A DNA stretch of 64,000 nucleotides from Thermoanaerobaculia bacterium (GCA_044868005.1 JBIOVX010000013.1:2172-66171), one strand, 5' to 3'; positions 17,560-23,415 are shown, counted from the stretch's first letter. A program made the numbers and translations. The notes: a model not told the origin generated them from the letters alone.

Positions 17560-20500
17560 ATGAGCGCTTTTCAGGCCGCGACAAAAACCACGGCGAAGCG
17601 GGCCCGTCAATCCCAGCCTCCCGCTGCGAAGAGCGAACCCTCGCGTGCGCAGGGCGCAGCTCCCGCCTCGCAAGCGCGCCTGGGTCCGTTGTACTCCGGA
17701 GGCCCCGTGGTCGGCCTGGGTCGCCCCGGCGCCGGCGGCGAGATGGAGCCGGTGCAGCAGAAGTGTGCGGCCTGCGAAGCGAAAGAAGCGGGCGGTGAAG
17801 CGGAGCCGGTGCAGCAGAAATGCGCGGCGTGCGAGGCGGAGGAGGCGAGCGGCGGGGCCGAGCCGGTGCAGCACAAGTGCGCGGCGTGCGAGGCGGAGGA
17901 GGAGAGCGGCGAGGCGGAGCCGGTGCAGCTCTGGAATTGCCGCAAATATGACGAGCCCACCTGCGTGGTGCAGACCCAGGAGGACGATGCGAAATCGCCC
18001 GTGCAGTCCAAGTGTGCGGCGTGCGAAGCGGAGGAGCGCGTGCAGCACGAGGGGGAGCCCGTCCGCAGCCCGCGCATGATCCGGCGCGAGGCGCGCCGCG
18101 GACTGCGGGACGCGAGCCTGCCCCTGCCCCATGCCGAGCGCATCCAGGCTGCCTTCGGCCGCCACGACGTGTCGCACGTGCGCACGAGCTTGGGGGGATC
18201 CTCGCGGGCCGCGAACAGCCGGATGGGCGCCCTGGCGTTCACCTCGGGGGATCGCATCGGCTTTCGCGAGGACCCATCGCTGCGCCTGGCCGCGCACGAG
18301 GCGGCGCACGTCGTGCAGCAGCGCGAAGGCCTGAGCCTGCCGGACAACGTGGGACGCGCGGGAGACCGCTGGGAGCGCCACGCCGATCGCGTCGCGGATA
18401 AGGTGGTGGAGGGAGGCTCGGCGGAGGCCGTGCTCGATGAAGTGGCGGCGCCGGCCGCGCCGTCGAGCGGGGGAGTGGCGCACGGCGGGAGCGCCGCGCC
18501 GGCTGCTTCGGCCGCACCGGCCACACCGGCCGCGGCGGCGCCGGCGGTCCAGCAACAGATCACCTCGGGCGCATCGCGGTTGTTCGAGCCCCCTCCGGTC
18601 ACTCCCGAGGTTCCCGCATCGACGGCGGAAGGCGCCGGCGAAAAAAAGAAGGCCGGCGCAGGCGAGCAGGAAGGTCAGGCCGAGGAAGGCTCGGCGATGG
18701 AGGCTGCCGAGGAGGGAGACAGCGAAGCGCCGCCCGAAGGGGTCACCACAGGCGGAGCCGCAGCAAGCGCGCCGGCCTCCGCAGGAGGCGCCCCGCCGCC
18801 CGCGGGCCCCCCGGCGGCGGGCGGTCCGGCACCCACGCCCGGCGCGCCGACTCCGGCCGCGGGCGCCCCGCCGGGTCCCGCCGCCGGCGGCCAGGCACCG
18901 GCGGCGGTCACGTCGGCACAGGCCCCCTGCTACAAAGTCGATCCCCCGCCGAAGCCCAAAAACGCGCCGGAGCCCAGCTCGGACGATCAGGGGGCCAAGC
19001 CGAAAGAGGAACCCCAGGTCACGTTCGACGAATGGCCGGCCGAGGTCGACGAATGCCCCGCGGAAGCGGCCGTGGCGCAAGCGGGCCAGCAGATGCCCGA
19101 AGGCGTGGGCGCAGGCACGGCGCCGGCAGGAGGTCCCGCCGCCGGCGGCGCGCCCGCGACCACCACGGCGGACGTCCAGACCGGAGGACCCGCCGCCGCG
19201 GCGGGCACCGGAGCCGGCCCGGCCGCGGCCGGCGCCGGTGCACAAGCGATGTCGACGGCTGCGCCGGCACAGACCGACCAGAGCATGGCCCAAGCCGGCT
19301 CCATGGATGGCCCGATCGCGAGCGCCGAGGGCGAGCGCGACACCGCGGTCACCGACTATCTCGCCTCGATGGACGGGCTCGGAGAGGTGCTCGCCCGTTC
19401 CCAGAGCCTGGCCTCGGGAGTGACGTTCCCGTCGGCGGAGGGCCTCGAGCAAGCCAAGGCGCGCCAGACGGCGATGGCTCAGACGCGGGCCTTCATGACT
19501 CGCGCGGCCGGCCAGATCGCCGGGGCCGTGGCCTTCGCGCGCGAGCAGGTCCCGGGACGCCTGGGGGGACTGGCCGAGACCACGAAAGCCAATATCCAGG
19601 GCGCGATCGAAACCGAGAAGGCCGCGATCTCCGACCGCATCGCACAAGCCCGCGCGCAGGCGAGAGCCGGAGCGGCGACCGCGCGCGCCCACGTCCGCAC
19701 CGAGTATGCCAACAGCGCGGCGCTGATCGAAGCGTCGACCCTCGCCGCCCTCTCCGCGCTCGACACGGAGTACGAGACGTCGGTCGGGCTGGTCGACGAA
19801 AAGGAGACCACCAGCCTCGACGACGTCAACTCCCGCTTCGCCACCGGCCGCACCCAGCACGAGAACAAGGGCCCCGAATACTCGAAGCGGGCGATCGCGC
19901 GCGGGCAGGCGCACGCGGACCAGTACGAGCGCTGCAAAGGAGACTACGACGACGACGGATTCTGGACCGGCTGCCTCACCGTGCGCCGCGCCAAGGCTCA
20001 GCAGGACGCGGCGTGCAAGACGGCGTCGGGCTACCACAAGGTCTTCCTGCGCACCGCCAACAAGAAGGGCTACGACCTCAGGGAGCTGCGCAAGCGATAC
20101 CGCTGCGCGGTCATCGCGGGCGCCCGCCAGGTCAATGAGACCTTGGACACGACGCACGAGAAGCTCGTCTCCGGGCTCGAATCCGGACGCATGCAGGCGA
20201 TGGGCGGCATCGCGCTCGCACGCGACCAGAATCTCGCCGCGATCGACAGCGCGCTGGCCGCCACGCTGAAGGCCCTCTCGGCGCAGGAGTTCTCACAGCG
20301 CCAGGCGGTCAACGACACCGGCTATCTCAAGCAGCTCGCCGTCGAGCAGCTCGCTCACTCCAGCGCGGCCAATCTGGCGCGCGGCATCTCGACGGCCATG
20401 GGCTCGCTGGAGCAGACGCTCACCACCCTGCGGGTGACCTTCGCCCAAGGCGTCCCGGAGCCCGAGGCGCTCGCGCAATCTCTGGCCGGCGCCGAGGCCG

Positions 20501-23415: not shown

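Follow-up and report, generated by a model that had tools for sequence, protein, structure and literature searches.

A class of toxins in which a constant PVC-metallopeptidase domain is joined to variable toxin domains was described by Zhang et al. in 2012 (PMC3482391), and this domain, DUF4157, was later described as a core domain of extracellular contractile injection systems (eCIS), with linkers of more than 1000 aa (Geller et al. 2021, PMC8213781). In AlgoCIS, cargo loading is signalled by a disordered N-terminal region, an AAA+ protein probably unfolds the cargo, and the 1228-aa Cgo2 sits in the tube lumen, where it is loaded with AAA+ help (bioRxiv 10.64898/2026.05.27.728243). Tme of Streptomyces davawensis is a 2247-aa, DUF4157-headed nuclease with multiple transmembrane (TM) helices that co-purifies with spike proteins (Nagakubo et al. 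2024, PMC11126660), and type VI secretion system (T6SS) effectors that have TM domains penetrate membranes by means of these and depend on Eag chaperones (PMC12881460). Here we analyze a giant gene at positions 17560..23415 (+) of a 64,000-nt stretch from a Thermoanaerobaculia bacterium (GCA_044868005.1 JBIOVX010000013.1:2172-66171), the whole of which we refer to as the window. The gene is probably a DUF4157-headed polymorphic toxin and an effector of the contractile injection system (CIS) encoded directly upstream.

A sequence-only reading of the window had proposed an eCIS-linked cargo or polymorphic toxin, and this proposal is supported by the domain assignment, the eCIS context, the conserved synteny, and the replacement of C-terminal cassettes together with co-varying candidate immunity genes. 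Loading, translocation and nuclease activity are inferred. The class of DUF4157-headed toxins was already established by work of 2012–2024, and that general picture is unchanged. What appears to be undescribed in the literature searched is a conserved helical and TM module, not covered by any Pfam model, that marks a subfamily with hundreds of representatives, a GIY-YIG-like C-terminal toxin domain (warhead) strictly paired with DUF4240, and a pentapeptide-repeat gene that forms the constant right flank of the cassette.

The giant gene, its injection system and its relatives

The gene is a single uninterrupted open reading frame (ORF) on the (+) strand that encodes 1951 aa from an ATG at 17560, and the long frame that had been noted is real and continuous. 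Public gene calls begin at a GTG at 17707, which has a GGAGG 4 nt upstream and yields a product of 1902 aa, while the ATG start adds 49 residues, the first of which (MSAF) are common to a distant relative, P0010. The choice between ATG 17560 and GTG 17707 is ambiguous. The N-terminal two-thirds of the protein are constant and comprise a leader with Cys motifs, DUF4157 with an intact metal site, a helical region of fixed length, and a TM hairpin with a glycine zipper. No signal peptide was found in the giant protein.

The DUF4157/eCIS_core/PVC-metallopeptidase domain occupies aa 187-280 (18118..18399 (+)). The assignment of a DUF4157 core holds in profile searches, in which PF13699 (now named eCIS_core) matches aa 187-257 with E=1.7e-11 (44.5 bits vs cutoff 22), and the DUF4157 segment searched alone reaches 49.7 bits (E=4.3e-13). 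The HEAAH motif that had been pointed out is present at aa 246 and belongs to a complete metal-site signature of HExxHxxQ and a downstream Glu (H246, E247, H250, Q253, Q254, E272), which is the PVC-metallopeptidase signature (PMC3482391). All 27 of the 27 relatives sampled match PF13699, and the HExxHxxQ...E columns are invariant or nearly so among them.

The leader (aa 1-186, 17560..18117 (+)) is charged and contains few hydrophobic residues, with disorder-promoting residues making up 75% of its composition, and it holds 10 Cys, four CxxC motifs and a WxC...C motif. Of the four to five PVQxKCAACEAxE motifs counted earlier, four lie at aa 64, 83, 102 and 147, and a fifth, degenerate copy lies at about aa 121 (PVQLWNCRKYDEPTC). 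The 19-aa units are coded by a 57-bp tandem array (17735..17929 (+); 3.4 copies by TRF), which had been described as exact but is imperfect, as pairs of the three units show 12, 13 and 7 differences in 57 nt and the TRF match rate is 84%. Among full-length relatives, 88/118 have CxxC motifs upstream of HExxH, in 0-5 copies. By comparison with the N-terminal domain (NTD) of the AlgoCIS Cgo proteins (bioRxiv 10.64898/2026.05.27.728243), the leader is a candidate loading signal. Like Cgo1 and Cgo2 (Xu et al. 2022, PMC8894135), the giant protein combines a disordered N-terminus, DUF4157 and a variable C-terminal domain; unlike the Cgo proteins, which were described without TM segments or an immunity partner, it has CxxC repeats in its leader and is about 60% longer than Cgo2.

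The giant gene begins 5 nt past an AAA+ ATPase gene in the Cis15/Afp15 position (15392..17554 (+); Pfam AAA, E=2.3e-22), whose product is CDC48/VCP-like in PDB and NCBIfam searches and is a probable cargo unfoldase or loader. Late eCIS structural genes fill positions 1..8607 (+) of the window, with matches to TIGR02243, CIS12_fam/TIGR02242, CIS13_fam and PDB 9gtp: the C-terminus of the Cis11 baseplate-J protein (1-1698 (+); TIGR02243, 161 bits vs cutoff 155.8), Cis12 (1698-4652 (+); CIS12_fam/TIGR02242), and two genes with CIS13-like fibre N-termini (4653-7223 (+) and 7048-8607 (+); CIS13_fam). The window's Cis12 protein was also found in public assemblies, where a 77-kb contig (GCA_044870275.1) extends upstream and carries sheath, gp19 tube, CIS_tube, GPD/VgrG, base_V spike and gp25 genes. 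Since the same contig carries the full contractile system upstream, the earlier statement that the gene stands directly behind an eCIS ATPase is correct. The resulting gene order is sheath, tube, spike, gp25, Cis11, Cis12, fibres, further genes, AAA and giant gene, which is the placement of a DUF4157 protein at the 3′ end of an eCIS operon described by Geller et al. (2021). The locus is like the PVC-metallopeptidase/eCIS toxins (PMC3482391, PMC8213781) in its constant HExxHxxQ-E head and variable C-terminal toxin, in its location at the operon's 3′ end beside an AAA+ ATPase, and in having a ‘linker’ of more than 1000 aa. Unlike in those toxins, the ‘linker’ here is a conserved helical and TM module of fixed length that defines a large subfamily.

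Searches with aa 600-1280 as the query and with family profiles gave 686 database representatives at E<=1e-3, and 278 at E<=1e-30. In species-representative genomes, 36 loci were found across more than 10 phyla, with hosts among the Cyanobacteria, Nitrosomonas, Desulfosarcina, Chloroflexota, Myxococcota (including Myxococcus xanthus), Nitrospira, Cellvibrionaceae, Ca. Endobugula, Lentisphaeria, Acidobacteriota, Bacteroidota and Verrucomicrobiota. Identity between phyla is 63-75%, which indicates horizontal spread. No actinobacterial protein was among the matches of the large middle-region profile search, a search limited by its word index. Databases give family members generic names only, for instance ‘DUF4157/eCIS core domain-containing protein’, and full-length members are mostly 1400-2700 aa, with HExxH at about aa 120-390.

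Synteny is conserved in 41 related loci and follows the order CIS13-like gene, further genes, a counterpart of the gene at 13276 (g13276), AAA ATPase, giant gene and pentapeptide-repeat gene. The AAA-giant-pentapeptide order recurs in at least 20 genome loci, in at least 20 of the 36 the giant gene has the AAA+ ATPase as its immediate upstream neighbour, and in Myxococcus the giant and pentapeptide genes lie just upstream of the sheath and tube genes. Wherever the flanking DNA sufficed, the orthologous loci were all eCIS-linked. One related locus (L001) has a second DUF4157 protein, of 529 aa and fused to OmpA, a few kb downstream of its giant gene (L001:17704-19293), and therefore some loci encode more than one DUF4157 effector.

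The exchangeable C-terminal cassette

The constant part of the protein is joined to its C-terminus by variable linkers (21385..22059 (+)) that are poorly conserved among relatives and consist of an (H-x3-P)n repeat (aa 1276-1335), a Gly/Ala/Arg-rich stretch (aa 1336-1440) and a Pro/Glu-rich repeat (aa 1441-1500). The ten H-x3-P pentapeptides counted earlier are nine strict copies and one H-x4-P at aa 1277-1330, and the Pro/Glu linker is 28% Pro. Relatives are 63-76% identical through aa ~1480 and then carry unrelated C-terminal domains. Base composition changes at nearly the same point: GC3 is 0.8-0.96 in the body of the gene and 0.42-0.71 after about aa 1500, in accordance with the compositionally foreign C-terminus recognized in the sequence-only reading, and the GC content along the window, about 0.74 before, drops to about 0.60 at 22-24 kb.

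In blastn comparisons with three related loci (L001, L002 and L004), similarity ends at 21,977-22,000, within the Pro/Glu linker, and resumes at 23,848-23,914, within the pentapeptide-repeat gene. This gap coincides with the low-GC segment (0.58-0.62 vs 0.72-0.78 elsewhere), and the similarity gap and the matching drop in GC therefore point to the C-terminus and the 132-aa ORF that follows it as a swapped cassette. On this evidence, the last ~470 residues and the next small gene are an exchangeable toxin-immunity cassette of lower GC (21990..23810 (+)), with its left breakpoint inside the Pro/Glu linker. A constant N-terminus joined to unrelated C-terminal toxins, as found here, is the mark by which Zhang et al. 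(2012) recognized polymorphic toxins.

The abrupt change of GC and GC3 at about 22.0 kb is also what one would expect from an assembly chimera, in which a low-GC C-terminus had been misjoined to a high-GC body near 22 kb. The identical 1902-aa product is nonetheless present on 5 contigs, from the NCBI metagenome-assembled genome (MAG) GCA_044870275.1 and from independent Logan assemblies of different runs; no break interrupts the reading frame, synteny is restored exactly at the pentapeptide gene, and the same fusion of middle region, linker and warhead is found in about 30 other proteins and loci of other organisms. Given this recurrence in independent assemblies and in other organisms, a chimera near 22 kb is effectively excluded.

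The alternative warheads of the relatives include Ntox1, a YwqJ/SsdA deaminase, Endonuclea_NS_2, Pretoxin-HINT, an HExxH module, and many tails without a Pfam match. Ntox1, deaminase and nuclease warheads are also known from the PVC-metallopeptidase/eCIS toxins. Two relatives, P0027 (locus L006, Mastigocoleus) and P0039, carry DUF4157/eCIS_core and Pretoxin-HINT in one polypeptide; in the survey of Zhang et al. (2012), HINT never occurred with the PVC route and the two peptidases were mutually exclusive (PMC3482391). In locus L002, where the warhead is Ntox1, an IS-type transposase (HTH_23 and DDE_3; L002:14396-15495) lies between the small post-toxin genes and the pentapeptide gene, which is consistent with the cassette region being a rearrangement hotspot.

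The small gene of the cassette (23412..23810 (+), 132 aa) overlaps the stop codon of the toxin gene by 4 nt and encodes a DUF4240-family protein, which we regard as a candidate cognate immunity protein. Its own match to DUF4240 (PF14024) is below the cutoff (22.3 bits vs cutoff 27, E=1.6e-4), while 9/9 of its homologues match DUF4240 and nothing else, with a best E of 6e-10; compared pairwise with the copy in locus L005, it gives E=5e-13. A DUF4240 homologue lies directly downstream in 8/8 other loci with the same warhead and in 0 of the remaining loci, and the arrangement of warhead and DUF4240 is repeated on the contigs of P0009 and P0012. Kinship between loci inflates the statistical strength of this count, yet the loci span several phyla. 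Such co-variation with the warhead is the standard toxin-immunity signature, and makes an immunity role for DUF4240 a candidate function. No mention of DUF4240 was found in the literature searched. The co-varying candidate immunity gene also sets this locus apart from the PVC toxins, many of which were noted by Zhang et al. to have no immunity gene. On the P0012 contig (JGI 3300047160), a 512-aa gene consists of a Pro-rich linker and the same warhead alone, and the next gene, of 128 aa, shares 4 nt with it; this pair may be an orphan toxin-immunity cassette or a fragment.

The warhead of the window's gene is the commonest in the family, with about 30 sampled proteins and loci at 26-50% identity, and it is quite probably a GIY-YIG-fold nuclease. 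Its core (aa 1681-1800, 22600..22959 (+)) scores just below the Pfam threshold for T5orf172 (PF10544; 18.8 bits vs cutoff 20, E=0.002), and among 20 relatives T5orf172 was matched by 4/20 and GIY-YIG (PF01541) by 1/20, all below threshold. An AlphaFold2 (AF2) model of the core built from a 20-sequence alignment has a pLDDT of 85-95 over 100 residues, a pTM of 0.69, and a beta-beta-alpha-beta-alpha topology. In Foldseek searches with this model, the top PDB matches were the UvrC N-terminal domain, Hpy188I, T4 EndoII, Slx1 and R.Eco29kI, and the top matches in the viral library BFVD were phage GIY-YIG endonucleases, whose probabilities reached 0.99; in the two libraries alike the E-values were 0.009-0.08, with TM-scores of 0.25-0.43. 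Y1708, K1720, G1722, Y1734 and E1768 are invariant in 20 cores and R1730 is nearly so (at least 90%), and further conserved residues are R1772 and then a W1797-D1798 motif. The spacing of the Y, KxG, Y, E and R residues is that of GIY-YIG enzymes.

The core is preceded by a warhead-proximal module (aa ~1541-1680, 22180..22599 (+)) that consists of a beta-rich His/Cys element and three helices, with AF2 secondary structure at pLDDT 50-84; the His/Cys element (GGExH...CSxxCG, C1568/C1572) is kept wherever this warhead occurs. At the other end, the C-terminal tail (aa ~1900-1951, 23257..23412 (+)) is helical and HTH-like, with AF2 helices at pLDDT of about 57-64. This copy of the tail has no Pfam match of its own, and it aligns with the tails of relatives that match HTH_23 (4/27 members, best E=3.6e-7), so that it is probably a DNA-binding element. 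The homing endonuclease I-TevI likewise joins a GIY-YIG core to an HTH-like DNA-binding tail. An AF2 model of the whole 461-aa C-terminus (pLDDT 55) gave only noise in fold searches and was replaced by the core-only model. The warhead is like GIY-YIG/T5orf172 and Tox-URI1/2 domains in the predicted beta-beta-alpha-beta-alpha topology of its core, its Y, (Y/K)xG, R and E residues and its HTH-like tail, and unlike them in that the core bears an additional conserved PWD...G-x-G-T-P extension and comes after a His/Cys element, as well as in its scores below Pfam thresholds. Toxins of the URI/GIY-YIG fold are not listed for the PVC route in the 2012 catalogue.

The helical and membrane module and a proposed route of delivery

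Approximately 900 aa of helical sequence had been described between DUF4157 and the hydrophobic block. This holds for a conserved, Pro-poor helical region (aa 581-1124, 19300..20931 (+)) with 1.1% Pro and 4 conserved Cys, whereas aa 291-580 (18430..19299 (+)) form a variable, low-complexity spacer rich in Ala, Pro, Gly and Glu (16% Pro, 28% Ala), which is poorly conserved and has patchy occupancy among relatives. The membrane module that follows (aa 1125-1275, 20932..21384 (+)) consists of two strongly hydrophobic helices, at about aa 1131-1153 and 1159-1181, and a glycine-zipper segment. It corresponds to the hydrophobic block of the sequence-only reading, with 17% Gly and a Kyte-Doolittle maximum of 3.48; hydrophobicity is strongest at aa 1125-1181, and the Gly-rich small-xxx-small segment then runs to about aa 1275.

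Conservation in the family is concentrated in three blocks, namely DUF4157, the helical region and the membrane module. The helical region has an occupancy of 1.00 and a majority-residue fraction of 0.5-0.67 in 27 relatives, and the same diverse set has no indels across about aa 650-1250. The membrane module has invariant P, W, G and N positions and is among the two most conserved blocks, and in nearly all relatives the hydrophobic block lies 850-900 aa after HExxH. The helical region had no match in Pfam, PHROG or PDB.

In our proposed mechanism, the AAA+ ATPase would recognize the disordered leader and feed the unfolded or extended protein into the tube lumen, where it would be stored in extended form. 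On contraction of the sheath the toxin would be driven into or onto a target cell, the hairpin and glycine zipper, both conserved, would insert into the target membrane and help the warhead across, and the nuclease would then enter the target and damage its DNA. The DUF4240 protein would neutralize the nuclease in the producer and its kin, and the DUF4157 domain may process or release the toxin.

The size and TM segments of the protein had been considered awkward for loading. By our own rough arithmetic, a 215-kDa chain occupies about 260 nm3, compared with about 1,250 nm3 for a lumen of 4 nm x 100 nm, where the lumen size is that of published eCIS structures and the other values are textbook ones. 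Size is therefore not prohibitive, as the presence of Cgo2 in the AlgoCIS lumen also suggests. For the TM helices, Tme offers the precedent of a CIS-associated protein that has several of them.

Several observations weigh against a loaded nuclease effector. The first is that the two very hydrophobic helices (maximum 3.48) would be expected to insert into the producer's membrane unless shielded, and no Eag-like chaperone gene was identified. The closest solved baseplate, judged by comparison of Cis11 and Cis12, is that of the cytoplasmic Streptomyces coelicolor CIS, so that one cannot be sure of action outside the cell. In AlgoCIS, loading proceeds without DUF4157 (bioRxiv 10.64898/2026.05.27.728243). 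With regard to the warhead, the lines of evidence for GIY-YIG agree with one another but are each below significance, a search of the warhead profile against PDB sequences found no nuclease but only short beta-hairpin look-alikes (serpins, adhesins), and the place of the Asn that many relatives have after PWD is taken by Ala in this copy.

Whether the DUF4157 domain itself frees the warhead bears on which part of the protein would be packaged. Autoproteolysis by its HExxH site could release a smaller C-terminal warhead as the sole packaged or active fragment, a role that Zhang et al. proposed for the PVC-metallopeptidase (PMC3482391) and that is compatible with an injected toxin. The near-invariant HExxHxxQ...E residues and the flexible Pro-rich linkers upstream of the warhead fit such a role. 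However, no cleavage site or junction motif was found before the cassette, where the tail alignment shows Pro-rich sequence only, and the Pretoxin-HINT of some relatives would be redundant if DUF4157 already freed the warhead. Loading in AlgoCIS, moreover, needs the leader N-terminal to DUF4157 and can dispense with DUF4157, which argues against the packaging of a C-terminal fragment alone. We consider this release doubtful, although by no means far-fetched.

The combination of a long helical region with TM helices raises the possibility that the protein is instead a Tme-type effector, derived from a tape measure and docked to the spike. The helical region would then be a ruler-like rod in the lumen, seated on the spike or tube initiator, with a role in assembly or length control, and the protein would be ejected first as a membrane pore and not loaded by the ATPase as free cargo. 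The likeness to Tme (PMC11126660) is considerable: both are giant (2247 vs 1951 aa), with an N-terminal DUF4157, helical, coiled-coil or disordered regions, TM helices and a C-terminal nuclease, both belong to CIS clusters spread across phyla, and one relative has an Endonuclea_NS_2-type warhead, as Tme does. The absence of indels from the helical and TM region in 27 diverse relatives and the affinity of the baseplate to the Streptomyces CIS would also fit, and by our own arithmetic 544 residues in one helix measure about 82 nm at 0.15 nm/residue, which is of the order of a CIS tube.

On the other hand, no tape-measure similarity was found with PHROGs, by tblastn against 50,697 phage genomes, with the family profile against PDB sequences (which include phage 80alpha gp57), or in a single-sequence search of the same PDB set, although this negative is weak because Tme was connected to tape measures by an HHpred comparison, which has greater sensitivity than the searches made here. 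The giant gene also follows the ATPase (or precedes the sheath in Myxococcus), whereas tme lies immediately upstream of the baseplate, spike and tube-initiator genes, and by the synteny criterion of the Tme study the gene is not a member of the Tme family (PMC11126660). Further differences are the GIY-YIG-like nuclease in place of the EndA/HNN type, and the immunity gene and warhead swapping found here; the tape-measure similarity of Tme has no counterpart here at the level of hidden Markov models (HMMs), with Tme compared through its published description. Overall, we regard a Tme-type role as unlikely.

The same TM helices could also place the protein in the membrane of its producer. The hairpin would act there as an anchor, or a cytoplasmic CIS would fire into that membrane as in Streptomyces, and the effect would be lysis, release of extracellular DNA (eDNA) or differentiation, and not attack on others. 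Tme, which acts on the producer's own colony (PMC11126660), gives this some weight, as do the strong hydrophobicity of the helices with no chaperone recognized, the closeness of Cis11 and Cis12 to the cytoplasmic S. coelicolor system, and the presence in the operon of an outer-membrane protein (OMP) beta-barrel and of a baseplate-region protein that ends in a membrane anchor. Diversification and horizontal exchange of warheads, in strict co-variation with immunity genes, are, in contrast, the signature of antagonism between cells; the two CIS13-type fibre-like genes suggest target binding, the protein lacks a signal peptide, and the linkage of DUF4157 to the ATPase fits known loaded cargo. A self-directed or producer-membrane role is accordingly less probable still than a Tme-type one.

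Returning to an effector that is injected into other cells, a tentative extension is that the helical rod, TM hairpin and glycine zipper form a built-in translocon, by which this cross-phylum lineage of eCIS would deliver cytoplasm-acting enzymes across the inner membrane of other bacteria. The protein would then be an antibacterial, kin-discriminating weapon with exchangeable warheads and immunity proteins, the pentapeptide protein might hold or adapt its hydrophobic module, and DUF4240 might be a new immunity family. This idea draws on the Tse6/prePAAR effectors of the T6SS (PMC12881460), which likewise have immunity genes and hydrophobic helices thought to aid inner-membrane crossing. The likeness is one of analogy and not homology, as the TM module of those effectors is N-terminal and shielded by Eag, whereas here it is internal and no Eag-like gene was found.

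Flanking genes and implications

Directly after the cassette, a pentapeptide-repeat protein is encoded at 23814..24809 (+) (Pfam Pentapeptide, E=2.1e-40). Its gene is downstream of the giant gene in 26/29 genome loci that have that DNA, and is found directly upstream instead in loci L011 and L014, such that in the window and in loci L006-L040 it is the constant right flank of the variable cassette. Pentapeptide-repeat proteins are accessory factors of the T6SS (TagAB), and no description of one in an eCIS setting was found in the literature searched. The protein could be a chaperone or an adaptor. Downstream of it, large multi-domain glycosyltransferase genes (window 24749-27751 and downstream) have homologues in loci L002, L004, L017, L018, L020, L028 and L034, and may be part of the same conserved neighbourhood.

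Within the operon, the fibre-like gene at 4653-7223 has a C-terminal ComEA-type helix-hairpin-helix (HHH_3, E=4e-16), which is an unusual distal domain for a fibre. Between the fibres and the ATPase (8608-15366), four operon genes have no assigned role. These are two neighbouring genes, each of about 390 aa, a 766-aa protein whose C-terminus is an outer-membrane beta-barrel domain (E=2e-8), and, just upstream of the ATPase, a 696-aa gene (13276-15366) that had no match in Pfam, NCBIfam, PHROGs or PDB and is syntenic with the ATPase in many loci. On the same contig upstream of the window, a 560-aa gene between the base_V spike and gp25 genes (L044:5651-7333) ends in a strongly hydrophobic segment (…MICSFSIPIITLCAFIVLMIFIILLNIVFWWLPFL…), which suggests that its product is a membrane-anchored baseplate component. 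Elsewhere in the window, a gene at 40423-41412, downstream of a cytochrome oxidase cluster, strongly matches MbnB/TglH/ChrH (a RiPP precursor-modifying enzyme, E=3e-111) and bears no relation to the toxin.

The rules by which eCIS particles are loaded are being worked out for their use in protein delivery, and this family provides a natural example of a TM-bearing candidate cargo of ~215 kDa with a plug-in C-terminal warhead. Through its strict pairing with the GIY-YIG-like warhead, DUF4240, a domain of unknown function, acquires a function that can be tested. If the helix-TM module does translocate itself, this would explain how eCIS toxins that act in the cytoplasm get inside bacterial targets, and would provide a portable module for engineering.

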